Shown here piece after piece: positions 1,316 through 62,764 of a stretch of DNA of 64,000 bases (position 1 is the first letter of the stretch; every line of letters starts with the position of its first letter). Below the pieces are notes generated by a model. It saw only the letters and a program-made list of their open reading frames with translations, was not told the origin of the DNA and did no database searches. A program made the translations under genes and the position numbers. This DNA comes from Candidatus Babeliales bacterium (GTDB lineage Bacteria; Babelota; Babeliae; Babelales; JANWKD01): contig CAVXJH010000003.1 in assembly GCA_963762115.1 (NCBI GenBank), positions 224,001 through 288,000 of the forward strand, read 5' to 3'.

Positions 1316-1459
1316 ATGTCAGTCGATATGAGTGCTTATTCGTTTTTTCCCGTTTTTTCAGAAGTAATATTCTGCCCACATTCTTTTTATAATCATTTTT
1401 CTCTCATTATTACCATTTCTATTATTATTACCTCAATTATTCTGCCTCTAGCGCAGTAA
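1316..1459 (+). CDS. Ile-rich leader peptide (47 aa), putative attenuator of peptidase-ileS
   Basis: RBS AGAGGT; MSVDMSAYSFFPVFSEVIFCPHSFYNHFSLIITISIIITSIILPLAQ*; 8 ATT codons in 12; upstream TTGTAA and extended -10 TGtTAAGAT. Confidence 0.75.
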   Translation: MSVDMSAYSFFPVFSEVIFCPHSFYNHFSLIITISIIITSIILPLAQ

Positions 1460-1596
1460 GAGGATCTTTTTCACCCCTATTTTTTTGTTATGTAGGTACT
1501 TTTTTTAGGTACAGTTTTTATGAGTTTTATAGTTTGATCTAGCATTGTTTTTTATTACTTTTGCTTTATTAACTATTATTTTTAAGGAATTTTAAT

Positions 1597-2514
1597 ATGT
1601 TGAAACATATATTTTTACTTTTTATGTTGTTTGGCAGTTTGTTTTGTGCTTTTTTTGGGTATGGTATGGATCAACAAACTAAACAAGAAATTGAACAAAC
1701 AAATGCGAGATATCTTGCTTGTGTTGGGACAGAAGATGTTCCGCAAAAAATACAGGATCGTACCGATGCACTTTGTATAACTTTTCAAAAAAAGGGTTTA
1801 TTGAATAAAGATACTAAGGTGCTTGTTAAATATTTAAGTAATACTATGGTAGATTATTTACGCAAGTCGGGGACTATCACTTGGAACAATCGTCTTAATA
1901 ATGGTCAAGATTTAATGCATATATCTTGTGAACATGATGAATTAACAGATGAAGAGATTGATTCGGCTTTTGGTCATGAACTTGCGCATATTGTCTTGGA
2001 TCAGAATAAACATTTAAATCCTCATTATTATATGAAAAATCTTCATTTATTTTTATTGGCTTATTCTTCAGCGTGGCCAGTTACATCGTTGTGTACGATA
2101 ATGGCATTAACGAAATTGGGAAGAAAAAAACTTCCTATTTCTTCATTTAAACAAATAAAATATGAAATTGGTGGTACTGCTTTGGCAATTGTTGGGGCGC
2201 ATGAAGCTACCACATATTTATTTAGTCAGGTAAAAGAACATCATGATCGTCCTGTGCATAGTGCATCTCGTATGACCTATCGTTTTTTGCATACATTTCA
2301 AGAAGTAGAATGTGATGTTATTGCTGCATTAAGTATACCAAACGGTGGTCGGGCTGGTAAATCATTGTATGAAAAATTCTTACAGCATTGTGGCGATCAA
2401 GATGGCGCTCTCCATAATTATCCGTGGCTCTCAACACGTGTTTGGTATCATGATAAAATTGAGCAAATGCAAAATTTGTTTACAACAAAGAAAGAAGGAC
2501 CAACGCTTAAATAA
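1597..2514 (+). CDS. Secreted/membrane M48-like zinc metallopeptidase
   Basis: Signal peptide; HELAH zinc motif; downstream QEVECD (ExEAD-like) and YP..STR motifs. Confidence 0.65.
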   Translation: MLKHIFLLFMLFGSLFCAFFGYGMDQQTKQEIEQTNARYLACVGTEDVPQKIQDRTDALCITFQKKGLLNKDTKVLVKYLSNTMVDYLRKSGTITWNNRLNNGQDLMHISCEHDELTDEEIDSAFGHELAHIVLDQNKHLNPHYYMKNLHLFLLAYSSAWPVTSLCTIMALTKLGRKKLPISSFKQIKYEIGGTALAIVGAHEATTYLFSQVKEHHDRPVHSASRMTYRFLHTFQEVECDVIAALSIPNGGRAGKSLYEKFLQHCGDQDGALHNYPWLSTRVWYHDKIEQMQNLFTTKKEGPTLK

Positions 2515-2586
2515 TTCAGACAAGAGGCTTTATTTTTGCTAGAATTTTTTAATATAAAGAAATTAAAATATGAAAGAATATAAACC

Positions 2587-5526
2587 ATGACTCAAGAAAA
2601 AAATACAACACATGAAGTAAGTGCGGGAAGTTTTAAAGATACATTAAATTTACCGCATACAGATTTTCCTATTCGTCCAAATTTGAAAGTTGAAGATAAG
2701 GAAATGATTGAACGGTGGGAACGTGAAAATCTTTTTTTTAAATCATTCATGCATAATGAAGGTGAAAAAAAATATATTTTGCACGATGGTCCACCGTATG
2801 CAAATGGCTTTATTCATCTTGGTACAGCCTACAATAAAATTTTAAAAGATATTATTGGAAAATCACATCGTATGACTGGTTTGCATGTTCCCATAACGCC
2901 TGGATGGGATTGTCATGGATTGCCTATTGAAAAGAAAGTTACCACAGAGTTTCCTGATTTAAAAGCTGAAGATCTTAAAAAAGAATGTCGTGCCTATGCT
3001 GCTAAATGGGTTGAAGAACAGAAGACTCAGTTTAAAGGTCTCGGGGTACTTATGGATTGGGAGCATCCTTATTTAACAATGAATTTTGGCTATGAAGCTT
3101 CAATTGTGCGTGCTTTTGGTAAACTTGTTGAAAAAAATTATATAGAAAAGAAGAAAAAAACAGTTGCGTGGTGTTTTCATGATCAAACCGTGTTAGCAGC
3201 GGCCGAAATTGAATATAAAGAGCGTAAAGATCCTTCAATTTATGTTTCATTTAAACTTTCTGAACAAGCAATAGAAAAAATTGTCCCTTCGCTCAAAAAT
3301 GAATCAGTGAGTGTTTTGGTCTGGACAACAACGCCATGGACGTTGCCATTAAATCGTGCGGTGTTGCTTAAACCTGATACTGATTATCAAATTTTACGGG
3401 TGAATGAACACTATTATAGTGTTGCCGCTGCATTAGCAGATAAGGTATGTGCTTTATTACATGTTACAAAAAATGTTGTGGCAACGGTGAAATCTGAAGT
3501 ATTGGCTGATTACACCGTGCATCATCCTTTTATTGATGATTTAGAAGTGCCACTTTTACTTGATCATTCTGTTTCAACTGATGATGGAACTGCCGCGGTG
3601 CATTGTGCGCCAGGATGTGGTCCGATCGATTATGAAGTTGCTTTAAAAAATAATCTTGAAATATTTTCACCTATTAGTGCTGATGGCAAATATGTTATTG
3701 GTATTGAACCAGCAGAATTAATTGGCATGTCGATCACTGATGGGCAAATATGGGTACTCAAAAAGTTAACGGAAAAAAATGCCTTAGTATATAAAACATC
3801 AATTCGTCATTCATATCCTCATTGTTGGCGCTGTAGCGAGGGGCTTATTTTCCGAGCAACAAATCAATGGTTTTGTAGTTTAGAGCATGATAATTTAAAG
3901 CAACGAGCTTTAGAGGCAATTGAAGAAATAACTTTTATGCCGGCAAAATCAATTAATTATTTAAAAGCAACAGTAAGCGGACGTTTGGAATGGTGCCTAT
4001 CACGCCAACGAGTGTGGGGTGTGCCCATTCCTGCATTGCTGTGTACCAATTGTGATTATGTACACACGAATGTCGATTTAATTAATGCTGTTGCTGATGG
4101 CGTTGAACAACATGGTGTTGAATATTGGGATACCGTTTCATTGCATGAGCTTGGTCATAATATAGATCAATGTCCGCAATGTTCATCAACGAAATTAGTT
4201 AAAGAAAAAGATATTTTAGATGTTTGGTTTGATTCTGGCGTGAGTCACTATGCCGTGTTGGAACAAAATCCACATTTGGCATTTCCTGCTGATATATATT
4301 CAGAAGGCGTTGATCAACATAGAGGGTGGTTCCAAAGTTCTTTGCTGACAAGTATGGTTTTAGAAAAAACAGCTTGTACAAAATCTTTTTTGACTCACGG
4401 TTTTATTGTTGATGAGCGCGGTCAAAAAATGTCAAAATCACTTGGTAATGTTGTTTCTCCTGAAGAAGTCATTACAGCATTAGGAGTTGATGGTTTGCGC
4501 TTATGGGCATCAAGCATTGATTATGGCGGTGATATTGTTGTTTCAAAGGTGGTGTTACAAAATGTTGCGCAAGTGTATAGAAAAATTCGTAATACCTGCC
4601 GATTTTTACTTTCTAATTTGTATGATTTTGAGTATGAAAAAGATGCATTGCCTTTGCATGACTTTGCCGTGTTGGAACAGTTTGCTTTTGAAGAATTATT
4701 TGAATTAAATAGTGCCGTTTTGCAAAAATATGCAGCGTATGATTTTACCGCAGTGTTTCATATGCTTAATGATTATTGTTCAGTTGCTTTAAGTTCACGT
4801 TATCTTGATATTATCAAAGACCGGTTATACACCGAAAAAGCAAATGGCAACGAGCGGCGTGGTGCGCAAACAATGTGTTGGTTGATTTTGGATACCTTAA
4901 CGAAATTGATGGCACCAGTTTTATCATTAACGGCGGAACAAGTTTCAGATTTTTATCAAAAAGATAAAAAACATTCAATTCATTTACAAAATTTTAATAT
5001 ATTAGAATCAATATGGGCTTTAGTTGCACAACAAAAAAATCTTGTGCGATGGGCGCCAGTTCCTTTACATCACCAAGCAGCATTAGAAAAAATTACACAA
5101 CAAGGACAAGATTTTGCCGTTGTAGCAAAACGCAAAAAACAAGAGGTATTATTATTGTCATTGCGTTCAGCGTTATTAAAAGCTATTGAAGGGCAACGGG
5201 AAAAAGGGCTGATTAAGCATTCTTTGGAAGCGCAACTTTTGGTATATTTTGATTTGACTGATGATCAAAAAGAACTTTTGGCTGATTTTGTGCAATTGTT
5301 AAAAGAAAAAAATCAATCATTAGAAGCTTTCTTAAAAGAATTTCTTATTGTTTCACAGGTTACCATACAAAAGTCGGCAGACAGTTTATCGGTGACAGAA
5401 TTACCAGGATTATCTGCACGTGTTGAACAAGCACAAGGTGTAAAATGTCCTCGCTGTTGGAACTGGGATATCACTGATCATAAAGATGGTTTGTGTCATC
5501 GTTGTCAACGGGTATTAGGTAATTAG
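2587..5526 (+). CDS. ileS: Isoleucine--tRNA ligase (type 1)
   Basis: DGPPYANG, HLGT (HIGH), GWDCHGLP, WTTTPWT, KMSKS, C-terminal CPRC..CHRC zinc finger. Confidence 0.98.
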   Translation: MTQEKNTTHEVSAGSFKDTLNLPHTDFPIRPNLKVEDKEMIERWERENLFFKSFMHNEGEKKYILHDGPPYANGFIHLGTAYNKILKDIIGKSHRMTGLHVPITPGWDCHGLPIEKKVTTEFPDLKAEDLKKECRAYAAKWVEEQKTQFKGLGVLMDWEHPYLTMNFGYEASIVRAFGKLVEKNYIEKKKKTVAWCFHDQTVLAAAEIEYKERKDPSIYVSFKLSEQAIEKIVPSLKNESVSVLVWTTTPWTLPLNRAVLLKPDTDYQILRVNEHYYSVAAALADKVCALLHVTKNVVATVKSEVLADYTVHHPFIDDLEVPLLLDHSVSTDDGTAAVHCAPGCGPIDYEVALKNNLEIFSPISADGKYVIGIEPAELIGMSITDGQIWVLKKLTEKNALVYKTSIRHSYPHCWRCSEGLIFRATNQWFCSLEHDNLKQRALEAIEEITFMPAKSINYLKATVSGRLEWCLSRQRVWGVPIPALLCTNCDYVHTNVDLINAVADGVEQHGVEYWDTVSLHELGHNIDQCPQCSSTKLVKEKDILDVWFDSGVSHYAVLEQNPHLAFPADIYSEGVDQHRGWFQSSLLTSMVLEKTACTKSFLTHGFIVDERGQKMSKSLGNVVSPEEVITALGVDGLRLWASSIDYGGDIVVSKVVLQNVAQVYRKIRNTCRFLLSNLYDFEYEKDALPLHDFAVLEQFAFEELFELNSAVLQKYAAYDFTAVFHMLNDYCSVALSSRYLDIIKDRLYTEKANGNERRGAQTMCWLILDTLTKLMAPVLSLTAEQVSDFYQKDKKHSIHLQNFNILESIWALVAQQKNLVRWAPVPLHHQAALEKITQQGQDFAVVAKRKKQEVLLLSLRSALLKAIEGQREKGLIKHSLEAQLLVYFDLTDDQKELLADFVQLLKEKNQSLEAFLKEFLIVSQVTIQKSADSLSVTELPGLSARVEQAQGVKCPRCWNWDITDHKDGLCHRCQRVLGN

Positions 5527-5571
5527 TTAACATTATTCTTTTTTATAGCGCTCATAGATTTAAAAGCAGTA

Positions 5572-5919: not shown

Positions 5920-5998
5920 AAGAACTCCTAAGGTGCGTTTTTTATTATATTTTGTGATTATCCTAATGCAAACAAAGATAAAAAACAATATATGCAGA

Positions 5999-6238: not shown

Positions 6239-6295
6239 AGAAATCCTCCTTTTAATAGTTATTTTATAGATACTACTAAAAGGAGGATTAATTTT

Positions 6296-11699: not shown

Positions 11700-11735
11700 G
11701 TTATATCATCATAGAATTTTAACTAGAATGTATCC

Positions 11736-18836: not shown

Positions 18837-18964
18837 TTTAACCTCATTAGTTAATGTTACTAATGCCTTTGCTTGTAAGCAATATTTCACGCTATAAACA
18901 GTTTGTTGAAAATTTTATTGTCTAATTGTTAATATTTATAGAGAGTTTATAATACCTTGAAAGG

Positions 18965-23214: not shown

Positions 23215-23311
23215 GATTTATACCTTTACAAAATCTAACAGGTAATGATAAAGTAACCTTGATTGTAACAAAAAAAATTTAGAAAAAACTAGTAAAAAAA
23301 TAAGGAGCACT

Positions 23312-23887: not shown

Positions 23888-23901
23888 AATAAGAGAAGCT
23901 T

Positions 23902-24592: not shown

Positions 24593-24640
24593 ATGAAATA
24601 TATCCTTTTTATTTTTGCACCACCTCATTTTCCCGCATAG
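24593..24640 (+). CDS. Pro-rich leader peptide (15 aa) upstream of putP
   Basis: MKYILFIFAPPHFPA*; 3 Pro in last 6 codons; no clear SD. Confidence 0.55.
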   Translation: MKYILFIFAPPHFPA

Positions 24641-24706: not shown

Positions 24707-26149
24707 ATGTATATTCAATTTATCGTTTCATTTATTGTGTATCTTATCATTGTTTTAGCAATAGGCATTTTTGCAGCGCGTAGTCAAACACAAAAAAACA
24801 CCGAACAATCAAGCGATTTTTTATTAGGCGGACGATCAACACATTGGTTTTTAACGGCACTTTCTGCGCACGCGGCTGATATGAGCGATTGGTTATTCAT
24901 GGGTTTGCCAGCTGCCGTTTATGTGCAAGGTGGTTATGAAATTTGGATCCCCATCGGTCTTTTAGTTGGCATGTCTTGCGTGTGGCAGTTTATCGCTAAA
25001 CGATTACGTGTTGTCTCGGCACAGTATCATGGCGTTACTTTAGCTTCATATTTTAAAAATCGATTTGCTGACACTTCAGGAATACTCATTTCTGTGTGTG
25101 CATTAATTTCATTTTTCTTTTTTTCTATTTATCTTTCCGTTGGCTTAAAAGGCGTTGGCTATGTTTTGAAATCAGCTTTTCATCTTGATTATCATGTTGG
25201 CGCTTTTTTAGCAGTAATTGTTGTTATAACCTATACTGTTGTGGGCGGATTTGTTTCTGTTGCATGGATTGATCTATTTCAAGGTCTTTTTTTATTAGCA
25301 ATGCTTATGCTCGTTCCTCTTGTTGGTTTTTTTAAGATTGGTGGTTTTGCAGCAATTATTAAAGCAGCACTTCTAAAGAACATCTCATTATCGCTTGTGC
25401 CAGATTTTTCATTGCGCGGCATTCTTTCTATTCTCCTTAATCCCTTTGCTTGGTGTTTGGGCTATTTTGGTATGCCTCATGTGCTCACAAAGTTTATGGG
25501 CACCGATGATCCAGAACAATTGCATAAAGCAAAATATGTTGGTGTTACTTGGCAATTATTAGCAACAACATCTGCTGTTGCTGTTGGCCTTGTTGGCATT
25601 GCCTTTTTCATGAATGGTGTTCCTGGAAAGCCTGAGTTTATATTTATTGAGATGACTAAAGCACTTTTTGATCCTTGGTTTGCCGGTATTGTTTTATGCG
25701 CTATTTTGGCGGCAACAATTTCCACCGTTGACTCGCAACTTTTAGTACTTGCGAGTATTATTGCACAAGATTTTTATAAAAATATTTTTTGTAAACAGGC
25801 AACAACAAAGCAAATGCTCTTTGTGTATCGTTGCGCATTAGTTGGCGCAGCATTTACCGGCTATGCAATTGCATGGAATGAAGAAAGCACGATTATGTCG
25901 TTGGTAAAATATGCCTGGTCAGGATTGGGATCATCATTTGGACCGTTAATGATCCTTTCTCTCTATTCAACCACGGTGAACAAATATGGTGCAATTACCG
26001 GTATTCTTGCTGGCGCTTTTGTTTCTGCAACATGGGATATAATAAATCCCTCTATTACAATCATGCCAATCTATTCAATCGTACCTGGATTTGTTGTTGG
26101 CTTAATAACTATTTATGGCGTTTCATTGATAACTAAAAAGCTAAAATAA
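24707..26149 (+). CDS. putP: Sodium/proline symporter
   Basis: DFLLGGR, ALSAHAADMSDWLFMGLP, LGYFGMPH, ISTVDSQLL, AWSGLGSSFGP. Confidence 0.93.
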   Translation: MYIQFIVSFIVYLIIVLAIGIFAARSQTQKNTEQSSDFLLGGRSTHWFLTALSAHAADMSDWLFMGLPAAVYVQGGYEIWIPIGLLVGMSCVWQFIAKRLRVVSAQYHGVTLASYFKNRFADTSGILISVCALISFFFFSIYLSVGLKGVGYVLKSAFHLDYHVGAFLAVIVVITYTVVGGFVSVAWIDLFQGLFLLAMLMLVPLVGFFKIGGFAAIIKAALLKNISLSLVPDFSLRGILSILLNPFAWCLGYFGMPHVLTKFMGTDDPEQLHKAKYVGVTWQLLATTSAVAVGLVGIAFFMNGVPGKPEFIFIEMTKALFDPWFAGIVLCAILAATISTVDSQLLVLASIIAQDFYKNIFCKQATTKQMLFVYRCALVGAAFTGYAIAWNEESTIMSLVKYAWSGLGSSFGPLMILSLYSTTVNKYGAITGILAGAFVSATWDIINPSITIMPIYSIVPGFVVGLITIYGVSLITKKLK

Positions 26150-50571: not shown

Positions 50572-51465
50572 CTAAAGAGTGTAACCCTGCTTCAGTTCTT
50601 CTTGGTAAAAAATATACAAACCAATGAAAACAACGAATAAAGAAAGGAAGAAAGTCCAACTGACCATTTCACCCAAAAACAACCAGCCAAAAAGTGCGGC
50701 AAAAAGAGGAGTGGTAAAGCCAGCAAATGAAAGAAAAGTTGCTGTATAACGCGTCAGCAAGTAACCATAAAAGTTATAGAACAATATATTGGCAACCAGA
50801 ATAATAAGAGCTGTTAAACGAACAAATGGCCAAAATTGCATGATAGGAGAAATTGCCCATCCCTCAACAAAATATGAAGTAATTAAAGCTAAAATACCGC
50901 CACCAACCATGCCAACACCATTAACCATAATGGGGGAATATTCACCATCTTTTACTAACTTACGAAGCATAATCCAACCATACACTGCCGAACCAACAGC
51001 AAAAAGCATCACGACTTCAGGCAAAGAAATTAATGAAGATGCTGTATGAACAGATAAATTTGAAACTATTTCAGGTAAAAAACCACAAAAACCAATACCA
51101 AGCCCTAACCATTTTCTAGAGGTCATCTTCTCTGAAAAATAAAAATAAGAAAAAATTGCTGCGAAAAATGGCGATAAATTATAAAGAAATGACGATTTAA
51201 ATGAAGTCAAATATTGCAGAGACCACAAATCTAACATATAAGCAAAATACACATGAAAAAGAATTATTTGAAAGAATAATAACCTATCTTTTTTATGCAC
51301 AAAAAAAGCACGCCTATCTTTCAAATAGGTATAACCAAGAAGCAATAACCCGGCCACGAACATACGAATGCCCACAAAAAACAATGGTTTTACGTACTCT
51401 AACAATGCCTTACAAATAGTAAAAGTACTCGCACACAAAGCATATAACACAATAATCGAAAACAT
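50572..51465 (-). CDS. EamA/DMT family transporter
   Basis: Ten TM-like segments, two EamA repeats; FGWLFLGE. Confidence 0.9.
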   Translation of the reverse strand: MFSIIVLYALCASTFTICKALLEYVKPLFFVGIRMFVAGLLLLGYTYLKDRRAFFVHKKDRLLFFQIILFHVYFAYMLDLWSLQYLTSFKSSFLYNLSPFFAAIFSYFYFSEKMTSRKWLGLGIGFCGFLPEIVSNLSVHTASSLISLPEVVMLFAVGSAVYGWIMLRKLVKDGEYSPIMVNGVGMVGGGILALITSYFVEGWAISPIMQFWPFVRLTALIILVANILFYNFYGYLLTRYTATFLSFAGFTTPLFAALFGWLFLGEMVSWTFFLSLFVVFIGLYIFYQEELKQGYTL

Positions 51466-51503
51466 AGTTACCCTTCTATAAAACTACTTACTTTCTCACT
51501 ATT

Positions 51504-51533
51504 AAAAAAACAGGCAACGCCAAGCATTGCCTG
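51504..51533 (-). terminator. Intrinsic terminator after cupin gene
   Basis: Minus strand caggcaatgc-ttg-gcgttgcctg plus U7. Confidence 0.7.
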
Positions 51534-51544
51534 CAACTAATTTC

Positions 51545-51886
51545 CTAATCACCCTTAGATTTTAAACGGGCAGGCTCAAACATAAGAACTAACGATCTTT
51601 CTTCTGCCTTAGGTTTGTGTTGAAGCCCCTTAGGTATAACAGCTCCTTGATTTTCTTTCAAATCAATTGATCCTTTTTCAGTATCAATGGTAATTTTACC
51701 CTTGGCAACTAGAAAAAACTCATCATCTTCATCATGACTATGCCAATGAAAATCGCCCTTAAATGCGGCAGCACGAACGACCCAATCATTAATCCGAGCA
51801 ACTTCAATAGGACTCCAATAGTTTTCACCTATTTTTTCATTAATACTATCAAGATCATAAAATTGTAAAAATTTTTTAATATCCAT
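51545..51886 (-). CDS. Cupin domain protein
   Basis: GDFHWHSHDEDDEFF, IPKGLQHKP. Confidence 0.9.
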   Translation of the reverse strand: MDIKKFLQFYDLDSINEKIGENYWSPIEVARINDWVVRAAAFKGDFHWHSHDEDDEFFLVAKGKITIDTEKGSIDLKENQGAVIPKGLQHKPKAEERSLVLMFEPARLKSKGD

Positions 51887-51909
51887 AAAATCCTTTCAAA
51901 AATAACAGT

Positions 51910-52680
51910 TTATAACGTAACAAATATTTCTTTTCCAGCGGAAACTTTCAAATAATCTCGCGCAGAACCCTGATTAACCGCAATCTCAAGCGTGTTATTA
52001 CTTCCTTTATAACAAAGCAATTGCCCCTGCTTAACCTTATCAAATGTTATTACAAAGGGTACTTCCAAAGATTTATCATCTATCTTCAAATGTATTAACC
52101 TATCAAACCATGTAGGATCAACTTGTATATTAGTTTTAATGTTGCCAAAACTATCTATGTAAGTAATAATTTTTTGCGTTTCTAAACTATCGCACAACGT
52201 AATATCTTTTTTATCAATCGGCAAAAGAGCATTCGTATTATTTTGTGCCAGTTGAATTGCAATCGGCGTAAAAATATCTCTACCATGAAAGGTATTCGAT
52301 TTTTCCGGGAAACATGCTTCATTAATTTTAAACACTTTTACACCCTCTTGTTTCAAAATATAATGAAACAAGCCATTATTTGGCCCAATAAACGTATATG
52401 ATCCAAGTTTTACTACCAAACCATTCCGTTCGGTGCCAACGCCCGGATCAACAACCGTAATAAAATAACTATTTTCAGGAAAATAGGCATAGACCTTTTC
52501 GAGCACAAATGCCCCACTGACAATACAAAATTTTTCTATGGAATGATCAATATCAATAACCGAACAATGAGGAATTTCACGCAATAAGGTAGCCTTTATG
52601 GAGGCAACCGCAAAATCAAGCCCAAAATCCGTTAATAAACCAAAAGTAATATTTGTATTTTTTGAAGATAACAAATTCAT
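51910..52680 (-). CDS. SAM hydroxide adenosyltransferase (DUF62, fluorinase/chlorinase family)
   Basis: LLTDFG, VVDPGVGTER, GPNNG, SNTFHGRDIF, IDSFGN, LEIAVNQGSA. Confidence 0.92.
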   Translation of the reverse strand: MNLLSSKNTNITFGLLTDFGLDFAVASIKATLLREIPHCSVIDIDHSIEKFCIVSGAFVLEKVYAYFPENSYFITVVDPGVGTERNGLVVKLGSYTFIGPNNGLFHYILKQEGVKVFKINEACFPEKSNTFHGRDIFTPIAIQLAQNNTNALLPIDKKDITLCDSLETQKIITYIDSFGNIKTNIQVDPTWFDRLIHLKIDDKSLEVPFVITFDKVKQGQLLCYKGSNNTLEIAVNQGSARDYLKVSAGKEIFVTL

Positions 52681-52784
52681 AGTCAATCTCTCTCATTAAA
52701 AAATGAAATCAAATTACAACAAAAGCACATCCCAAAAGGGATTCGCTTATAAAAAAATAATTGTGGAAAAGAAGATATATGGCC

Positions 52785-52883
52785 TTAGGCCATCATATAA
52801 AGAAGAGAAAATGACATAACCATGAATGCCAAGAACAAAATTTTGCTTGTCTGTGAAAAACAGGAAATAATGTTAAGATTCAT
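52785..52883 (-). CDS. Met-rich leader peptide (32 aa)
   Basis: RBS GAGGTG; MNLNIISCFSQTSKILFLAFMVMSFSLLYMMA*; promoter TTGACA-17-TAGAAT at 52951-52923. Confidence 0.72.
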   Translation of the reverse strand: MNLNIISCFSQTSKILFLAFMVMSFSLLYMMA

Positions 52884-53109
52884 AGTCACCTCAAAGGGTT
52901 GAATTGTTAAATACTCTATTAAATTCTAGAAAACAAATTCAAATTTGTCAATTTTTCAAAAGTCAAAGACATACAGAACAATTTTTTGTATCCTCAGGAT
53001 ATTATTGACGCTTAGAATATTTTATAATTAATAAACATATACTTTTTCTGTATTAATGATAAAACAAGTATCTATATACCTTTATATCGTTATAGAAAGA
53101 AAACATGCT

Positions 53110-54448: not shown

Positions 54449-54596
54449 AATAACTGTACAATTAAGTTGCTGTCAAAAAAAATTCTAATATTTGTGCAAT
54501 CGTGCAACTATTTTTAGATTGAGCAGTTGAATTTTAAATTTATTCATGCTAATATGGTTATATCTTATTAGAATAAAAATAGTAATAGAGGATAGA

Positions 54597-54771
54597 ATGC
54601 CCATGAACAGCATACTTTTTTCATCCCCGAAACCTTTCCATACCACATACCCAATAGGGTATCTTTGGCTTTGCCAATAAATACCTTCCTCATAGGCTCT
54701 ATCTTACCTATTCTTTATTTTCCAATTTTCCTTATCTGACTTTTCCTTTTTGGTTAAACCATTGGGCGTAA
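54597..54771 (+). CDS. Trp-sensing leader: 27-aa ORF (54597-54680) plus overlapping +1 frame ending W-L-N-H-W-A* at 54771
   Basis: RBS GAGG; promoter TTGAAT-17-TAATAT; GGG TAT CTT TGG C at 54657-54669; +1 frame open 54658-54771 with no ATG/GTG/TTG start. Confidence 0.65.
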
Positions 54772-54859
54772 GCCCGAATATTTTTTGCGGCTAATAACCG
54801 GATTTAAAAACTTTTTTGTTAAAAAATAGTGGTATTTTCCAAAGTTAAGGAAATTTTTT

Positions 54860-55720
54860 ATGAAGAACATTACTTTATTATCTTGTATAGTTTTATTAAT
54901 CAGTTATTCATGTTTTATAAAGGGCATGGAATCAGACATCGAATATAGACAAGCAACCAATGATGATACTGTTGGCATTGTAGATCTGATTAATACTTAT
55001 GCATATAAAGATAATGATAAAATCGTTATCGTTCCAGAAGCATTTCGTGCAGCATACATACAAAGTGCAATCCAAACCAAAAGGCTTTTTGTTGCTTCTA
55101 ATGACAAAACAATTGTTGGCTACAAAAAATTATTTTGTATAACTGACGAACATGAATGCAATGATATTTTAAATAATGAACTACGCTGCACAGAAGATAC
55201 TTCTGCAGGATGTGCATTAATATCTGCGCATGATGAATCTACACAAGATTTTTTACCTGAACAACTAACAACAATCATGTCATTGCCAATAACCTACATT
55301 TATAACGGAGCAGATTTCACCCACCCTCAATATCGTGCACAAGGTATTAATAGCTCTTTAACCAAATATGCACTTGAAGCAACTTCAGATGCAGTGCGTA
55401 AAGATATTGAGAAAAAAAAGAGTACCTATCTTGCCATGGTATATGGATTGACCAAGTCAAATGCCGGTGCCAGCATCGTGGATGGCCGAACTCATGGTAT
55501 TTTTAAACAGTTTGTTTCATTTGCGCAGGCAATAACACATACATTAAAGTGTGCCGAACCATCCCAAGTAATTCTTAGTAGGCATCATGCATTTAAACCT
55601 TCATTTGATCCTAAAGCTACAGAATGCAAGCCTCTCTCAGATAGTCAATCTATTCCAGGATATGGATATCTTGTAGCTTGTGCTTTGGATCAAAACTCCA
55701 ATGAACGAGGTGATCTATGA
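54860..55720 (+). CDS. GNAT-like acetyltransferase-fold protein with signal peptide
   Basis: IEYRQAT..D...I..LI, FVA...IVGY, THPQYRAQGINSSL. Confidence 0.65.
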   Translation: MKNITLLSCIVLLISYSCFIKGMESDIEYRQATNDDTVGIVDLINTYAYKDNDKIVIVPEAFRAAYIQSAIQTKRLFVASNDKTIVGYKKLFCITDEHECNDILNNELRCTEDTSAGCALISAHDESTQDFLPEQLTTIMSLPITYIYNGADFTHPQYRAQGINSSLTKYALEATSDAVRKDIEKKKSTYLAMVYGLTKSNAGASIVDGRTHGIFKQFVSFAQAITHTLKCAEPSQVILSRHHAFKPSFDPKATECKPLSDSQSIPGYGYLVACALDQNSNERGDL

Positions 55721-56883
55721 TTACCTTGCTACAAAAATATTTAGAAATTAATACTGCACATCCACATCCTCAGTATCACGCTGCTATTGCATTGTTTAAA
55801 AAGCAAGCAGAAAATGATGGTTTTTTGGTTACTGAACTTATTCTTCCTTCCGGCAATCCCGTGCTTATTATTACCTTGCAAGGCAGTTGTCTTGAAATGC
55901 CTGCCCTTGCATTAAATCATCATATGGATGTTGTTCCAGCTGATAATAAAGATGAATGGCTATTTAATCCATTTGCAGGAACAGTTCATGAAGATTATAT
56001 CTATGGAAGAGGTACACAAGATTGTAAAGGTCTTGGTGTAGTTCAATATGCAGCATTAAAAATGCTTAAGCAAAGCGAATTACAATCGGCAAGGACGATT
56101 CATTATATTATGGTTCCTGATGAAGAGCGCGGTGGATTTCATGGCATGAAAGAATTTGTTGAACATCCATTATTCGCATCATTTAACATAGGATATGTTT
56201 TAGATGAAGGCCTGCCTTCAGGAGATGATAACGAATTGCTCATTAAGATTGATGAACGTACGCCAATACAAATATGCATAACAAGTAGAGGGCAACAAAG
56301 CCATGCATCAGGATTACTTAATAAAAATTGCATTCATGAATTGACTAATTTTCTGGCAAATATTGCGGCATTTCAATCCAAACAACAACAAGAAGTTGCA
56401 TTGAATCAAGCCGGGCATCATATTTCAATGCATATTACTTCATTAAGTACAAATAATACTGCATTGAATGTTATTCCTACGCAAGCGCAAGCTACGCTTG
56501 ATATGCGCATACCATCGCACTTGTCTTTGGATTACGGAATTTCTTTAATAGATGAATTAATACAAAAACATACGAGTACTACCTATGAAATTTTAGCAAC
56601 AAGTCAGGAACGTTTTAAAATAATTAAAGAAGATTCAATGTTTTACCAAACACTTGCCCAAGCTGTTACTGATCATGGCATTAGTCCAAAATCTTTTGCA
56701 TTTGAAGCGACAACTGATGCCAGATTTTATAGCCACAAAGGCATTCAAGCAATTGGGCTTACGCCATTCACGGTTACGCCAAACTTACATGGTACTAATG
56801 AAAGTATTTATATAAACGATTTGGTGCAAGGAACCGCAGTTTTATATACCTTTTTACGTGCATTTTGCACATTAAATAATTGA
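55717..56883 (+). CDS. M20 family aminoacylase (ACY1-like N-acyl-L-amino-acid amidohydrolase)
   Basis: LNHHMDVVP, IYGRGTQDCK, VPDEERGG, LDEG, TDARF, LHGTNE. Confidence 0.85.
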   Translation: MITLLQKYLEINTAHPHPQYHAAIALFKKQAENDGFLVTELILPSGNPVLIITLQGSCLEMPALALNHHMDVVPADNKDEWLFNPFAGTVHEDYIYGRGTQDCKGLGVVQYAALKMLKQSELQSARTIHYIMVPDEERGGFHGMKEFVEHPLFASFNIGYVLDEGLPSGDDNELLIKIDERTPIQICITSRGQQSHASGLLNKNCIHELTNFLANIAAFQSKQQQEVALNQAGHHISMHITSLSTNNTALNVIPTQAQATLDMRIPSHLSLDYGISLIDELIQKHTSTTYEILATSQERFKIIKEDSMFYQTLAQAVTDHGISPKSFAFEATTDARFYSHKGIQAIGLTPFTVTPNLHGTNESIYINDLVQGTAVLYTFLRAFCTLNN

Positions 56884-56895
56884 TAAGGAAAAAAA

Positions 56896-57891
56896 ATGAA
56901 AAAACTAATTATACTATTATTAGTGATTACAGGCGCAATCACTTTTTATTATGCCAAGCAGCACCTACTTGAAAAAGAAGAGCAAACAAATACTCAACAA
57001 TTGCATATTGCACTCTTTACCCCGATAGCACATCCAGCACTTGAAGAAATTGAACAAGGCTTTAAAGAAAAGTTACAACAACTAAACTTAAAGCAATGCG
57101 TTTTTACAACATTCAATGCTAATGGCAACAGAACATTATTGCGAGCACAAGCAGAAGAAATTGTGCAAGGTAATTATGATCTAATATTTTCCATGGGAGC
57201 GATGTGTTCACAAACGATTGCTGAGCTGCTGAAGAAAAAAAACCTCGAAACGCCGCATGTGTTTGCTGGTGTTGATGGTCCTGAGTTTGCTCTTTCATTA
57301 CAATCTTTGAATGAATCAACCACAGGCGTTTATGTAAAATCAGATTATGAACAAGAGCTCAGCATTCTTTTTAAACTTAAACCGGACACAAAAAACATTC
57401 TTCTTGCATACGATCCAACCCATGGTGTCGGTTTAGAAAAACAAAAGAACGAAATCGAAGAATATAGCAAAAAACATGGTGCAACATTACACAGCGTTGA
57501 AATTTATCAAACAAATGAAATTCAACAAAAGGTTGCAGCATCATTATCTAATATAGATGTTGTGCTTGTGCTTACTGATAACACAGTGGTTGCAGGCGTT
57601 GATGCTCTTATTGCATTATGCAATCGATTTGGCGTTACTTTGATGGCATCAGATTTGCCGTCAGGGAAAAAAGGCGCTGCATTATCCTACGGAATAAGTG
57701 AATACGAATCAGGTACTGGCGCTGCGCAAAAAGCACAGATGATACTACAACAAAATAAAAAACCACATGAAGTTCCCGTAACCGCCATAACTAATTTCCG
57801 ACTCCACATCAATAAAGACACCATGAAAATGCAGAATTTGACTCTTGATCATGAGACTTTAGAACAATTAGAAAAGGAGATCTCATGTTGA
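56896..57891 (+). CDS. ABC substrate-binding protein, Trp/Tyr-type (ABC_sub_bind)
   Basis: HPALEEIEQGF, NANGN, TDNTV. Confidence 0.85.
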   Translation: MKKLIILLLVITGAITFYYAKQHLLEKEEQTNTQQLHIALFTPIAHPALEEIEQGFKEKLQQLNLKQCVFTTFNANGNRTLLRAQAEEIVQGNYDLIFSMGAMCSQTIAELLKKKNLETPHVFAGVDGPEFALSLQSLNESTTGVYVKSDYEQELSILFKLKPDTKNILLAYDPTHGVGLEKQKNEIEEYSKKHGATLHSVEIYQTNEIQQKVAASLSNIDVVLVLTDNTVVAGVDALIALCNRFGVTLMASDLPSGKKGAALSYGISEYESGTGAAQKAQMILQQNKKPHEVPVTAITNFRLHINKDTMKMQNLTLDHETLEQLEKEISC

Positions 57892-58766
57892 ACACCTTGC
57901 TCGTTATTATCGAGCAAACCATGTTGCACTTACCGTTAATGTTTGGAGCTTATGTAAGTTTTTCATTATTAAAAGTCCCCGATTTAAGCATTGAAAGCGC
58001 TTATGTGGTTGGTGCAATTTTAGGTTCATCCGCTCTGATCAATATTGTAAATGTTCCTATGAGTATGATGATTTTCATCATACTCATGGCCAGCTTTCTT
58101 GGTGGAGCACTGGTAGGCATGACTTCAAGTTTGCTTACTCAAAAAGCTAAATTTCCCCATTTACTAAGCAGCATTGTTACCTTTGGTTTATTCCATGGTA
58201 TTAATCAGTTTATTTCAGCAACGTATGTTTCGTTAAGTAAAATAGATAATCCGCTTAGATTGCTTAACGGTATAACTCAATATCCTGAACTGCCCGTGCT
58301 CATTGTGATCGGTTGCCTTATTACAAGTCTTATGTATGCATTATTTAAAACACAACTTGGTTATGCATATGCAGTCTATGGCAACAATTCACAATTTTTT
58401 AAAAATTATGGCACCTCAACATCATTTGTATTTATTACCGGCATTATGATTGCCAATGGCTTGGCTGGCATAAGTGGTTATATGTTTGCACAATCAAACA
58501 ACTTTTTTGAACTTAATATGGGCCTTGGCAAGGCCCTTCTGTGCATCACAGCGCTTATCCTAGGAAAAGGCATACTGCACACAAAAAAACCGTTTTCAGT
58601 TGCTGTACCATTAGTTGGAACAGGTGCCTACTTTTCATTACAACAGTTACTGCTTAAAGTTGGGTTCAATTTAAAATATTTTACTGCCGTGCAAGCATTG
58701 TTGGTATTATGCATTTTGGTATATACCTTCCGAAAACAACCATGCAACGATAATTTGGGGGTATGA
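57885..58766 (+). CDS. ABC permease, Trp/Tyr-type
   Basis: PDLSIESAY, KTQLG, G.N, ANGLAGISG, MGLG. Confidence 0.85.
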   Translation: MLNTLLVIIEQTMLHLPLMFGAYVSFSLLKVPDLSIESAYVVGAILGSSALINIVNVPMSMMIFIILMASFLGGALVGMTSSLLTQKAKFPHLLSSIVTFGLFHGINQFISATYVSLSKIDNPLRLLNGITQYPELPVLIVIGCLITSLMYALFKTQLGYAYAVYGNNSQFFKNYGTSTSFVFITGIMIANGLAGISGYMFAQSNNFFELNMGLGKALLCITALILGKGILHTKKPFSVAVPLVGTGAYFSLQQLLLKVGFNLKYFTAVQALLVLCILVYTFRKQPCNDNLGV

Positions 58767-59461
58767 CTATGTTTATTAAACATCTTTCATTTAAATTTAA
58801 CAAAAAGAGTGCTCAATCCTTTTTTCAGAATATAACAATCGCATTTGCACCCAATAAGGTCCATTTTATTCAAGGTGATAATGGTGTGGGAAAATCAACA
58901 TTTTTCAATATACTACAAGGAGCCATCGGAAAAGATGCTTACTTAGAGGCATCTATACAGTTGGATGGCACCACATTTAACACACACAATACTATGTTGC
59001 CGCATGTATTTACACAACAGGTGCACGTAGTGCAGCAAAATTATGATAGTATGATTGCAAATCAATTTACCTTCATGGAAAATTTGCAATTGGCAAACTT
59101 ACCTATGTATCCACATTTAAAACCACTACCTCAAGCAACATTGTTTGATGTCATTAAAACATTAGGCATAGATCCACATAAACCTGCTTATCTTTTATCA
59201 GGCGGCCAACGCCAATTATTGGCAATACTCATGGCATTACAAAAAACAACAAAACTATTATTACTTGATGAACCAACGGCGACCCTTGATAAAAAAAATG
59301 CGGATCTCATTATGCAATGCCTATTTCAACTTGCAGAGCAACTCAAGGTAACTATGCTGATTATTTGCCACGATAAAGAACTGGTGAAACAATATGCACA
59401 GGAAAATAATTTTGTTATTCAACAGTTAGAAGATGGTACGCGAATGATACATAAAACCTAA
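58763..59461 (+). CDS. ABC ATP-binding protein
   Basis: GDNGVGKST, LSGGQRQ, LLDEPTATLD, H. Confidence 0.9.
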   Translation: MTMFIKHLSFKFNKKSAQSFFQNITIAFAPNKVHFIQGDNGVGKSTFFNILQGAIGKDAYLEASIQLDGTTFNTHNTMLPHVFTQQVHVVQQNYDSMIANQFTFMENLQLANLPMYPHLKPLPQATLFDVIKTLGIDPHKPAYLLSGGQRQLLAILMALQKTTKLLLLDEPTATLDKKNADLIMQCLFQLAEQLKVTMLIICHDKELVKQYAQENNFVIQQLEDGTRMIHKT

Positions 59462-59575
59462 AAATAGTATCCGATGTGTAATAATTAAAGCTGGGTTATT
59501 ATTTTAATTATTATTAAATGTATTATACTTGTATTAATCGAATATAATTTTCAAGATAAACAGTTAGGAAAACAT

Positions 59576-60558
59576 ATGCATAGAAAGAAAAAATTATCCA
59601 AATTATTTTTTATATCATTATTAATGTGTACTGCACTATTAAATGGCATGGAAGAAAAAAAAAACAATTTTTCATGTGATTTATTTAATACAAAAAAATC
59701 AGAATTACAAGCAATACCCCGTAAATGCTGTAAGCAGTATAAAAAATTATCAAAAATAGATAATACATCACTAACAACACTCTATGCATGGAGAGGAAAT
59801 GCCACGCCGCTGCTATATATGCCTCAAGAATATTTTGATTCAACGCAAAATGATTCTATGAACTTGAAAGCATTGTTTGAAAACTGTCAATTAGTTTCTG
59901 ACAACAATGTATTTATGCTCCATGATGAACCTAAGCCATGGGTGGAAAAAGAGCACAAGGGCAAGAGGATTTTTTACCTCGTTTGTATCAACCAAGAATT
60001 TCTTTAGATGCACTGCCGCAGCTATTACATAATGCAAAATCTATTCTTAAAGCCTTTTTACCTAGCGAAGAATTTATTTTTGACAAACAAAAATTTATTC
60101 AAAAAGGCGGTGCCATAGATCGGCTTTTTACCTATGCTAAACTGCAGCGCACTATTCAAGAAAAACAATTGTCGAATGTTTCTCTTCCACGAAAATTACT
60201 TATTATACAAGATAAAGAAAGTGGTAAATATATTGATAGTCAAAGCGCTCAAAATATTTTAGATGATGCACTAAAAATTGCTGTTTTGTATTCAAGTGCC
60301 GTTGAAATCAAAATGAATTGTTATTCACACAAATATGCTTTACTGATTTTTGCAGAAAGAAAAATAAACCATAACACACCATTAAATCAAGCAGCATTCG
60401 AAGATTTAAAAACACTCACTGCTGAAGCGCCATTTGATGTTGGCTATGATAATATTTTTAGTGATGAAAATGGCAATGCAATTGTTATAGATTCAGAATT
60501 TAAGGGCGAACCAGCTGAAACTTCCATACTAAAATTGAATCGATATAAACACAATTAA
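59576..60558 (+). pseudogene. Secreted protein with kinase-like C-terminal motifs, split by an apparent -1 frameshift near 59946-59950
   Basis: ORF1 signal LNG-ME; overlapping ORF2 with DVGYDNI...IVIDSE. Confidence 0.5.
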
Positions 60559-60597
60559 TCAAGATTTTAAAGTATCTCTTTTGACAACTTCGTACAC

Positions 60598-60641
60598 GGA
60601 TGAAGGAGAAGCCGCTGCTTAACAAAGCTTCTCCTTCATCC
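60598..60641. terminator. 15-bp perfect hairpin between convergent genes
   Basis: ggatgaaggagaagc/gcttctccttcatcc. Confidence 0.65.
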
Positions 60642-60649
60642 ATGGTTAT

Positions 60650-62023
60650 TTACTGCACACTTCTTTTTTTTACTTCTTGAGCAATTTCATACATACGATG
60701 AGTCATAGCTGAAAGCCCTTTTGGATCCATTAAAAGATAAAAATTCATAACCGTGTTTTTATCTTTATTCACGGTATCATATTCAATAATATCAGAATGT
60801 AAAACCACTCTTGATTGAACATACGGCAATAATTCCTTGTATTGTTCCTGTAATTCCATAACAGAATAATCACCAGCTTTAACACCAAGCATTTGTGAAA
60901 CATAACACCATTGTTCAGCTTTCTTTCGCGGTATCATCATTTGTAATAATCCTGCACTTGCTTGTTTTTCATAGTCATGGAGCTCAGCTTTATATTTTTC
61001 ATAAAGATCTTCTGCACCATAGTCTTTGAATATCTGCTGTATAATTGTTGTATCAACATCCTTTGCCAAAGTATCAAATAACATAGGCAAATAAACAACA
61101 TCAGAAGGATTTTTAATAAGAGCACTCACAATTTTTGGAAGAACCATCACTTGCGACATGAGCAGACCAACAACATTTAAAGAAACATCAGCAGTTTGAT
61201 ATGCCCACGAACACGGCTTTGCAATAAATTCTATGCTTGACTCTTTTCTTGGATTATTTATCCATGAAGTATTCCCATACAATCCTGCATTAACACTGAG
61301 AAGCTCTTCTCGATTATCAGTAAGATCCATATAAACCATCTCATTTCCTGTTGGAACTGGGTTACCATAAAGTATAACCCGCATTTCTTTAACCCGTGGT
61401 GCTTTTTTATAACGATCATCGTAATATTCTTGTGCATTTGCTTGTTGTATTTTGTTTTTTGCTTTTTGCACATCTCTTATTTGCACAAAATGTTCTTTAG
61501 GAGCATCATGCAAAACTTCATCGAAAATAGTTCTTAAAAGCATTGATGCACCTTTATGCGTTCCATGCACACAGCAGAAATAATCCTGCTCTTTATAAAC
61601 ACCCTCTTCATGACAAACATATTCAGTAAGATTATTCAATTCTTTGCGCATCTTAGGCATTACCACCCAACTTTCAGCTAATGAAAGCCTATTTATTTGC
61701 GCTCTACTCAAAATGGATCTATCACTAGGCGTAGCTAACGATAACACACTATCATGGTTAATCTGATCCTTTGTTACCGATGCCACGATTTTTTTCTCTT
61801 TATAATGCGCAAGAAGATTACTCACTTTCTTAGGTGTGGCTGGCGAACTTACTTCAATCATCTCTCGTGCATCATAACAATCTGCGACATATGCTGCCGC
61901 TGTTAAAATCCCCAGCGTTGCAATCTCTTTTTTATGAAGATACAGTTTTTCCATACCCAAAAGAGCATTACTTAATAACAACAAGATGAATGGCATACAC
62001 CACTTTATAAGTTTTAATATCAT
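60650..62023 (-). CDS. Hypothetical secreted protein (457 aa)
   Basis: RBS AAGGA; signal ending LLG-ME; no family recognised. Confidence 0.75.
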   Translation of the reverse strand: MILKLIKWCMPFILLLLSNALLGMEKLYLHKKEIATLGILTAAAYVADCYDAREMIEVSSPATPKKVSNLLAHYKEKKIVASVTKDQINHDSVLSLATPSDRSILSRAQINRLSLAESWVVMPKMRKELNNLTEYVCHEEGVYKEQDYFCCVHGTHKGASMLLRTIFDEVLHDAPKEHFVQIRDVQKAKNKIQQANAQEYYDDRYKKAPRVKEMRVILYGNPVPTGNEMVYMDLTDNREELLSVNAGLYGNTSWINNPRKESSIEFIAKPCSWAYQTADVSLNVVGLLMSQVMVLPKIVSALIKNPSDVVYLPMLFDTLAKDVDTTIIQQIFKDYGAEDLYEKYKAELHDYEKQASAGLLQMMIPRKKAEQWCYVSQMLGVKAGDYSVMELQEQYKELLPYVQSRVVLHSDIIEYDTVNKDKNTVMNFYLLMDPKGLSAMTHRMYEIAQEVKKRSVQ

Positions 62024-62173
62024 AGTTTTATTCCTTTAAACGTATTACTACGTATTTTTATCGTTCTATTTATATACATACAAGGTAATCAACATTTTCA
62101 CGAAAAAAGACGTGAAGGTGCCGGACACAATGATCACGAATTAAGATCGCAATCACCATTCATTAAAAAATAA

Positions 62174-62326
62174 TTAAAAACTAAAGGGAAAGAAAAAAGA
62201 AAAAAATGGACAGGGAAAAAGAAGAGTAGATTTGAATGAAAGATGTGGCGAAATATTCAGGAGCATTTTTGCTTCTATCCTGAGCTTTCTTTTATTAGAT
62301 TCGCAAGGTTTTTGTTGAGATAACAT
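62174..62326 (-). CDS. Phe-rich leader peptide (50 aa)
   Basis: RBS AAGGAAGG; ...STLLFPCPFFSFFFPFSF*; 8 Phe in last 14 codons; TTGACA-16-TAAGCT upstream. Confidence 0.65.
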   Translation of the reverse strand: MLSQQKPCESNKRKLRIEAKMLLNISPHLSFKSTLLFPCPFFSFFFPFSF

Positions 62327-62549
62327 GACCTTCCTTTTCTTTAAAATGGTAAAAATAATACATGCTTGTGTATAAGCTTACAATATATAAATTTAATGTC
62401 AATATGAAATTAAATGTTTTTTAAAATTACAATATCAAATCAGGATTATTCTTAAATTTTCAAAAAAAAATTTCTTCTACTTTAAAGCTTATCTATAACC
62501 AAAAAACTAGTTCTTGCTATTTGTATTATTTAATGGTATAAATAATAAT

Positions 62550-62696
62550 ATGAAGATTAAAAAACCTACTATTCACAACTCATCCTTAGGTGCTAAAGCT
62601 TGTGGCCTTAACAGAGCCAAAAGCCAGAATTGCGCCCTTTCTTATATCAATTCTTATTATTTTTATTTTATATATGAGGGGTCGCATTATGCCTAA
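62550..62696 (+). CDS. Tyr(/Phe)-rich leader peptide (48 aa)
   Basis: MKIKK...CALSYINSYYFYFIYEGSHYA*; 6 Tyr and 2 Phe in last 17 codons, none earlier. Confidence 0.8.
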   Translation: MKIKKPTIHNSSLGAKACGLNRAKSQNCALSYINSYYFYFIYEGSHYA

Positions 62697-62731
62697 ATTA
62701 TAAATTTGAAAAATTATAAGGCAATTTGCGC

Positions 62732-62764
62732 AAAACCCCCGTTAAAAAACGGGGGTTTTTTTTT
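62732..62764 (+). terminator. Attenuator terminator upstream of ilvE
   Basis: aaaacccccgtt-aaa-aacgggggtttt plus U run, 50 nt before the ilvE ATG. Confidence 0.88.

Follow-up and report, generated by a model that had tools for sequence, protein, structure and literature searches.

Amino-acid-specific leader reading frames in a Babeliales genome and a predicted +1 frameshift at a tryptophan codon

A 64,000-nucleotide stretch of the genome of a Candidatus Babeliales bacterium (assembly GCA_963762115.1, contig CAVXJH010000003.1, positions 224,001 to 288,000), referred to here as the window, carries six short open reading frames (ORFs), each with a cluster of codons for one amino acid (Ile, Pro, Met, Trp, Phe, or Tyr) at its 3' end. 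The preliminary description of this DNA had taken them as attenuators of one shared design; we found that the leader set is real and broader than the window and that the single-design reading is wrong. It is likely, as far as sequence can indicate, that the leaders act as ribosome-based sensors of charged tRNA, which would switch on uptake and salvage in starvation, and that the Trp leader relies for this on a programmed +1 frameshift at a Trp codon. Somewhat less firmly, we lean toward the view that the phylum Babelota possesses a multi-amino-acid "ribulon" in place of T-boxes, whose Trp member would be a selected hungry-codon frameshift working as a two-step AND gate, and which would induce secreted proteins as well. 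The genome under study, G000, measures 1.53 Mb, with about 34% GC; G and L numbers denote genomes and loci of relatives, respectively, and C numbers denote the contigs of G000.

Two reading frames in the tryptophan leader

Five of the six ORFs translate as previously described. The remaining Trp entry (54597 to 54771, 175 nt) is composed of two frames and not of one ORF, and by taking it as a single ORF, the preliminary description missed the most unusual feature of the set. In this leader and its relatives, we could recognize a cassette in which the first frame (ORF1) ends at a Shine-Dalgarno (SD)-like sequence followed by a slippery CCC, CUU, GUU, or UUU codon, by UGG-C, and by a near stop (Table 1). 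The SD-like element lies 3 nt 5' of the slippery codon, the P-site codon is able to re-pair in the +1 frame, and the A-site codon is UGG in 19 of 19 aligned sites. The +1 frame of the window has no ATG, GTG, or TTG start of its own, and the spacers are G poor (e.g., 3 G in 70 nt). The first gene of the downstream operon is conserved, and its structure model (pLDDT 93) matches GNAT folds.

For the conservation analysis, we considered 104 loci in the neighborhood of either the GNAT-like gene or the Trp-type binding protein, 79 of which have at least 120 nt upstream, with 4 duplicates. An SD-led ORF with a terminal Trp was found by script in 53 of these loci and in none of a further 22, 5 of which proved to be two-frame leaders on inspection. 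The leaders were then classed on the 5' site only, i.e., on a single Trp after CCC, CUU, GUU, or UUU. The +1 frame is open up to a distal UGG in 16 of 17 such slippery single-Trp leaders, compared with 1 of 36 other Trp leaders, while the +2 frame is open in 0 of the 17. Sorted by P-site codon, the single-Trp leaders show the open +1 frame with CCC (10/10), GUU (4/4), CUU (1/1), and UUU (1/2) and with other codons in 0/11. Moreover, the distance from UGG to UGG in 16 leaders takes nine values between 40 and 97 nt, all of the form 3n+1. A different count, with the frame open in 19 of 19 leaders versus 7.2 expected, was set aside as circular, since that set had been chosen by the open frame.

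The sequence upstream of the slippery codon is distinctive too. SD-like pairing at positions -13 to -5 averages -3.6 kcal/mol, versus -0.9 kcal/mol in single-frame leaders (p 7e-5, a value that, like the other p value given below, overstates the case, the genomes being kin), and no such difference appears in two segments further upstream. At the internal SD-like position, GG occurs in 12 of 16 two-frame leaders and in 7 of 36 others.

Searches that started from the pattern extended the set. A first pattern search over 261 genomes gave 9 new matches, and both of those that are intergenic and SD led (in G195 and G014) have the predicted +1 frame, which ends in WW or WWPCLA and lies before signal-peptide-like genes that are unrelated and have no clear Pfam family; the other 7 matches were discarded as chance. 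A blind scan for the cassette with any amino acid, run on 1481 intergenic regions from loci enriched for Trp operons, returned 17 Trp matches versus 0.4 in shuffles. The two-frame leaders total 23 distinct sequences from 8 family groups plus metagenome contigs, and their length changes in whole codons only. We consider it highly probable that the two-frame Trp design is selected and translated.

Predicted output of the tryptophan leader and competing explanations

In the two-frame Trp leaders, the segment that would lie under a stalled ribosome is predicted to pair with the downstream SD. Pairing of the 20 nt upstream of the last UGG is stronger with their own downstream SD than with swapped partners (-8.3 versus -5.2 kcal/mol; permutation p 0.0002, n = 16), and this cognate-pairing signal is confined to within about 30 nt of that UGG, windows farther off showing nothing. 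When the RNA is masked up to the distal stall, predicted SD accessibility increases from 0.15 to 0.37, rising in 13 of 16 leaders, part of the gain being a trivial effect of masking upstream RNA. The leader RNA is also C rich and G poor, and a rho gene was found in G000, as would suit Rho-type control.

From the anatomy, conservation, and covariation of the Trp leader, we infer its translation, the shift, and the direction of control in the following way. When Trp is plentiful, the ribosome would read UGG and stop 2 to 4 codons later; the untranslated remainder would fold, its anti-SD segment would pair with the SD of the first gene, and the operon would be off, while the naked C/U-rich spacer may load Rho as well. 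When Trp-tRNA is scarce, the ribosome would pause at UGG, the peptidyl-tRNA would re-pair one base on (CUU to UUU, CCC to CCU), and GGC would be read. The shifted ribosome would then cross the spacer and stall again at the distal UGG(s) over the anti-SD, and the freed SD would permit translation of the GNAT-fold protein, the aminoacylase-like hydrolase, and the Trp ATP-binding cassette (ABC) importer. Two serial Trp checks would stop fed ribosomes from melting the repressive helix.

Several observations weigh against this scheme or against its extension to the other leaders, in addition to the kinship of the genomes and the trivial part of the accessibility gain. A second pattern search gave 26 matches, consisting of 2 known leaders and 24 new matches, none of which is a leader and which were discarded as chance. 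The tree of 42 downstream GNAT proteins requires 6 changes of design, and its well-supported branches force only 2 of them. Single cases depart from the rule: L277 has a slippery UGG and no distal module, in G213 the +1 frame is open and a slippery site is missing, L254 contains in-frame ATGs upstream of the shift site, and an ATG overlaps the shift site in G057, G244, and L252. With a 30-nt block at the last Trp codon only, SD accessibility hardly moves (0.37 versus 0.41; 0.41 in shuffles). At the sensor position, the single-frame Trp (35), BrnQ (17 selected), Pro (8, several of them mis-picked ORFs), and Met (5) leaders showed no anti-SD covariation. The ileS leader recurs in 2 of 23 relatives versus 1.0 expected, and the thresholds behind the conservation counts of the single-frame leaders were set after the data had been seen. 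Finally, the excerpted text of PMC3082878 on the CCC_UGA shift of Escherichia coli pheL indicates that a leader frameshift can be incidental.

It is possible, though unlikely, that the +1 shift in the Trp leader is real and its output transcriptional, the shifted ribosome masking a Rho site or a weak hairpin-U terminator in a tnaC-like manner and the anti-SD pairing being secondary. The presence of rho, the G-poor spacers, and a distal hairpin that scores terminator-like are in keeping with such an output, as is the proposal, in the consulted portion of PMC1262725, that polypyrimidine tracts after the terminator-less Cys leaders of Actinobacteria are Rho sites. However, position-specific covariation with the SD is not expected of a Rho-only switch, and both outputs can coexist. 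The second frame might also be read without a +1 slip, by re-initiation, from a non-AUG start of its own, after a -2 shift, or through transcriptional slippage. We regard this as improbable: a few leaders do contain an ATG of the +1 frame close to the site, and +1 and -2 shifts are indistinguishable from sequence alone, but 9 of 19 two-frame leaders, that of the window included, lack ATG, GTG, and TTG in the second frame, the design follows re-pairable P-site codons, and no long homopolymer is present at the site.

It appears very improbable that the two-frame leader reflects a relic or misassembly (tandem leader ends or an indel of one base), with attenuation by single ORFs alone at work. About two thirds of the Trp leaders are single frame, the pheL shift is an incidental one, and the reads do not cover the site of the window, since 20 contigs of one DNA run align to positions 52000 to 63500, all at least 99% alike with no differences listed, and none of them extends over 54500 to 54900. 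Yet the same offset is kept, with whole-codon length changes, in all 23 distinct leaders across the family groups and metagenome contigs, and it is because of this conservation, and not because of resequencing, that an assembly error is disfavored. A search of genome contigs gave one 3.5-kb locus with no leader.

Leaders for the other amino acids

TABLE 1 Coordinates of the leaders, their structural elements, and the genes downstream (window positions unless a contig of G000 is given)
Feature	Position	Strand	Basis or remarks
Ile leader ORF, 47 amino acids (aa), ends IITISIIITSIILPLAQ-stop, Ile run at 3' end	1316..1459	+	Translation; similar leaders directly before ileS in G001 and G022
Gene with signal-peptide-like N terminus, no family match	1597..2514	+	Between Ile leader and ileS
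ileS	2587..5526	+	TIGR00392, above cut-off
Pro leader ORF, 15 aa, ends APPHFPA-stop, CCC-loop-GGG hairpin at end	24593..24640	+	Translation
PutP-like sodium/proline symporter	24707..26149	+	TIGR02121 best match, below cut-off
S-adenosylmethionine (SAM) hydroxide adenosyltransferase-family gene, cupin, EamA transporter	50572..52686	-	Family scans
Met leader ORF, 32 aa, ends LLYMMA-stop, stop in GC-hairpin loop	52785..52883	-	Translation, folding
Trp leader ORF1, 27 aa, SD-led, ends GYLWLCQ-stop	54597..54680	+	ATG frame
Predicted +1 shift cassette	54657..54669	+	SD-like G run, 3-nt spacer, slippery CUU (54663-65), sensor UGG (54666-68), then C
+1 frame, 34 codons, pyrimidine rich, ends FWLNHWA-stop; distal UGG at 54751 and 54763	54667..54771	+	
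Anti-SD segment, predicted partner of the ribosome-binding site 54839-54853	54741..54753	+	Covariation across 16 leaders
GC hairpin enclosing last UGG and +1-frame stop	54762..54777	+	Folding
Trp operon: signal-peptide-like GNAT-fold protein, M20 aminoacylase-like hydrolase, TrpX-like ABC binding protein, permease, ATPase	54860..59461	+	
Protein of unknown family, signal-peptide-like N terminus, downstream of Phe leader	60650..62023	-	Family scans
Phe leader ORF, 50 aa, ends FFSFFFPFSF-stop, no hairpin at stop	62174..62326	-	Translation
Tyr leader ORF, 48 aa, ends SYYFYFIYEGSHYA-stop	62550..62696	+	Translation; conservation
Antiterminator overlapping intrinsic terminator (62732-62759 plus U tail)	62674..62764	+	Folding; G run at ORF end pairs with C run
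ilvE-type aminotransferase, then first Tyr-type ABC binding protein; operon runs past window	62814..64000	+	Family scans
Ile-ending leader ISIITA-stop, before BrnQ	C3, upstream of 22728-23897	-	ORF scan
Tyr leader FYYLSFYYYCV-stop, before two PvcA/DIT1 genes	C3, upstream of 291748	+	13-bp stop-loop hairpin
Thr leader KTTTTTA-stop, before SDF symporter	C6, upstream of 487506-488678	-	ORF scan

A comparison of the terminal residue clusters with shuffled DNA, which the preliminary description had put forward as a check, confirmed a genome-wide enrichment: 7 single-residue clusters were found at p < 1e-4, versus 1.55 in shuffles (1899 short ORFs, 20 shuffles). Across 658 upstream regions, SD-led C-rich short ORFs number 39 versus 16.6 ± 3.4 in shuffles, and those with the stop inside a GC hairpin number 5 versus 0. 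Three further leaders outside the window (Thr, BrnQ, and Tyr before PvcA) have a residue that fits the downstream gene; PvcA uses tyrosine. Six of the 10 genome-wide ORFs combining a hairpin with a terminal Ala were discounted, being members of a dispersed intergenic repeat. This repeat (e.g., C6 near 147000 and C3 near 424300) has a 15-nt core in 16 exact copies, and the repeat has 11 nt in common with the Pro leader hairpin.

It is hardly credible that the short ORFs as a set arose by chance in intergenic DNA that is AT rich and skewed toward pyrimidines. In such DNA, codons for Phe and Ile are frequent, Ala-stop ends and promoter matches do not exceed chance, and the ileS leader count is close to it, but the enrichment over shuffles, the fit between residue and downstream function, and the retention across families speak against chance. 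Such an origin is already contradicted for the Trp, Tyr, Met, Pro, and BrnQ leaders and is possible still for single members, e.g., Phe or Ile.

As for the properties attributed to the six leaders, family scans corroborated the downstream genes (ileS, a putP-like gene, the SAM hydroxide adenosyltransferase family, PF04392 Trp/Tyr-type ABC genes, and ilvE), with profile scores above the cut-offs for both ileS and ilvE. The residue-Ala-stop ending, noted for four of the leaders, was rejected as a peptide signal because Ala-ended ORFs are not enriched (29 versus 29.2 expected) and Trp leaders mostly end otherwise, WR-stop (19/53) being commoner than WA-stop (9/53). It looks like a by-product of the hairpin, because Ala (GCN) and Arg (CGN) codons before the stop provide its GC pairs. 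The sigma70-type promoters fared no better, with matches at chance level in the two regions scanned (5 versus 5.5 and 12 versus 12.8); the promoter of the Met leader matches the consensus at 11 of 12 positions. As for the placement of stop codons in or against hairpins, single stop-loop hairpins are modest (z of -2.2 for Met, -1.4 for Trp, -1.25 for Ile, and +0.1 for Pro), and there is none for Phe. Strong folds occur in the Tyr leader only (antiterminator z -2.9, terminator z -3.4). The Ile, Pro, Met, Trp, and Phe leaders have no terminator/antiterminator pair, only stop-loop hairpins of 3 to 6 bp or none, two of which score terminator-like in a loose scan. A scan for SD-led ORFs detected the Ile, Met, Trp, and Phe leaders but not those for Pro and Tyr. 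Instead of one shared design, there are at least three, namely, a classical terminator (Tyr), a two-frame frameshift with an anti-SD (Trp), and a single ORF with a stop-loop hairpin and a pyrimidine tract.

In the Tyr leader, a terminator and an antiterminator that exclude each other are positioned for switching by the ribosome. A Tyr-run ORF about 60 to 90 nt before a CCCC/GGGG-U terminator occurs in 21 of 29 Tyr-type ABC loci, its own included, and a G-run/C-run antiterminator is predicted in nearly all of them. Fold and conservation identify this leader as a classical transcription attenuator in its predicted function: in Tyr shortage, stalling at the Tyr run would allow the antiterminator to form. 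The Tyr-type loci of G003 and G012 have a Tyr-rich leader and no terminator, and in G137 (L163) a short Tyr-rich leader sits between a terminator and the ABC binding-protein gene; an apparent Tyr frameshift at L163 was rejected, since the Tyr frame starts with its own ATG. With regard to the second Tyr leader, 1 of the 12 PvcA loci examined in relatives has a clear Tyr/Trp leader (G161, L315), which ends in YYRWA-stop with a stop-loop hairpin and combines Tyr and Trp codons. A block of about 17 kb (window positions from about 53000 to 64000 and onward to about 294000 of C3) holds the Trp, Phe, and Tyr leaders together with the PvcA genes and is absent from the syntenic region of the same-genus G001, so that leader plus operon may move as an island.

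The presence of leaders in relatives, another check proposed at the outset, was borne out across Dependentiae, with the ileS leader near chance. In loci with at least 110 nt upstream and with the post hoc thresholds noted above, the Pro leader recurs in 4 of 18 relatives versus 0.9 expected (the script overlooked a leader seen in G001), the BrnQ leader in 7 of 28 (0.0 expected), and the Thr leader in 1 of 17 (0.0 expected). The Met leader is kept by all 4 relatives whose upstream region is long (5 loci; 0.0 expected), and a Pro-codon hairpin motif occurs in 6 of 30 putP loci, its own included, versus 0.1 expected. The Met-leader operon likely serves Met salvage from imported SAM; in G042 (L087), two MMA-stop leader ends stand in tandem before a SAM hydrolase-family gene. 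The BrnQ leaders of relatives (L120 to L146) are rich in Met, Cys, Ile, and Val, not Leu, which hints at a broader or different substrate range. In one of them (L121, G004), the SD-led ORF stops early and a different frame carries an Ile/Met/Cys-rich tail similar to that of G003, either an indel or another shift in this one case.

The link to secreted genes gave a mixed picture. The Ile leader of G001 is syntenic and abuts ileS directly, the intervening gene being missing there, so that this gene is likely an insertion in the window. On the other side, the first gene of the Trp operon is the conserved GNAT-fold one, and the family of the Phe-leader gene has a leader in 3 of 4 homologues with a long upstream region (0.2 expected), which is Phe/Ile rich in G003 and ends in Ile/Val-rich runs in G020 and G037. 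The structure model of the Phe-leader protein (pLDDT 41.5) is too poor for use, and the protein had no match in the Atlas.

What the single-frame leaders have in common at the RNA level is a short GC hairpin whose 5' arm contains the cognate codon and whose loop often contains the stop, with a pyrimidine tract after it. It is possible to hypothesize that, in the Ile, Pro, Met, Phe, Thr, BrnQ, and second Tyr leaders, a ribosome stalled at the cognate codons by the stop would cover the hairpin and the tract and thereby prevent premature, probably Rho-dependent, termination. Of all the steps that we propose, this Rho-dependent output is the least supported; composition and the presence of rho make it the likely one. 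The Pro and Met leaders of the window itself have a predicted pairing with the downstream SD of about -11 kcal/mol, with no family-wide signal.

Comparison with known systems and genomic setting

Classical ribosome-mediated transcription attenuators include E. coli trpL, pheL, and pheM/pheST. The leaders described here share with them an ORF with cognate codons and, in the Tyr case, a full terminator/antiterminator pair. Different from them, the Babelota leaders belong to an auxotrophic lineage and would govern importers, salvage enzymes, and secreted proteins; an intrinsic terminator exists in the Tyr leader only, and no Rfam model matches. Control of leaders through Rho is exemplified by E. 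coli tnaC and Salmonella mgtL, the former sensing excess free Trp via its nascent peptide. Pyrimidine-rich, G-poor leaders without an intrinsic terminator, in a genome with rho, recall these systems, but unlike that of tnaC, the Babelota peptides are conserved in codon identity only and the predicted signal is shortage. Frameshifting at hungry codons in starvation has been studied for decades as an error; with a conserved cassette of less than 300 nt, it can be tested directly in E. coli whether cells employ the error as a sensor, and such a cassette, if the reading is true, would provide a compact Trp biosensor.

A closer parallel for the output is the mycobacterial polycysteine "Cys ribulon," where, according to the accessible part of bioRxiv 10.1101/834739, a ribosome stalled near the end of a short ORF frees a sequestered SD at several loci in parallel. 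The cognate stall and the parallel loci are common to both; on the basis of that text, the mycobacterial ORFs are leaderless, single frame, and restricted to Cys, whereas those of Babelota are SD led and represent at least Trp, Tyr, Met, Pro, Ile, Thr, and Phe, with a frameshift gate as an addition in the Trp leader. For the gate itself, the counterpart is the prfB cassette for release factor 2 (RF2), for which the excerpted text of PMC5009743 lists CUU_U re-pairing, C as the following base, and an SD spacing of 3 nt for the +1 shift. The Trp leader has an SD-like element at the same spacing, CUU_U-type re-pairing, a slow A-site codon followed by C, and a short zero-frame ORF. However, its A site holds the sense codon UGG and not UGA, its input would be Trp-tRNA and not RF2, and its +1 frame is a short regulatory tract and not a protein. 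Because the A-site codon is not a stop, we classed the set as a variant of leader attenuation and not within the prfB family. The prfB gene of G000 (C7:155305-156336) runs in one uninterrupted frame and lacks the frameshift that is usual for RF2.

The same 2016 review, in its excerpted text, names the ketolide-induced ermCL and the incidental pheL as leader frameshifts and reports no starvation-specific trans-frame function. As in those two cases, to the extent that the excerpts describe them, frameshifted ribosomes would pass the leader stop and could unfold structure over the downstream start. In contrast to the drug-induced and the incidental shift, a conserved dedicated cassette and a second block of sensor codons point to selection for starvation sensing. 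The shifting at hungry UGG codons in interferon-treated cells is called aberrant in the excerpt of PMC8310308. The single parts (attenuator leaders, SD sequestration, proposed Rho sites, and the RF2 cassette) are known, and we found no report of a leader frameshift as a starvation sensor. In our literature search, outside of which lay bioRxiv supplements and subscription-only papers, neither these leaders nor a hungry-codon attenuator turned up, nor did anything joining Dependentiae with attenuators; there is no mention of the phylum in PMC4833913 or in its 4 supplements.

According to the accessible part of PMC4776705, Dependentiae/Babelota genomes lack complete pathways of amino acid biosynthesis and depend on uptake. 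The picture of a host-dependent lineage with amino-acid-specific leader ORFs before uptake and salvage genes is supported by the recurrence of the leaders in relatives and by a homologue of the first Trp operon gene that is named Candidatus Dependentiae. The view that T-boxes are not in use held as well, with 0 matches to RF00230 in G000, 0 in the 5 relatives scanned, and 0 matches to any Rfam family in the window. In this almost uncultured phylum, whose members infect protists, the leader set assigns substrates to orphan transporters and enzymes and flags secreted proteins that are likely induced by nutrient shortage in the host.

The window also contains homologues of RNase Y (37342-38910, -) and CarD (45611-46231, -), and cutting of untranslated leader RNA by RNase Y is another possible off-switch. 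In addition, it codes for a subtilase (17169-18890, -) and a DOT1-like methyltransferase (18965-19636, +), both with a signal-peptide-like N terminus, and for a Ku protein (31590-32405, -).

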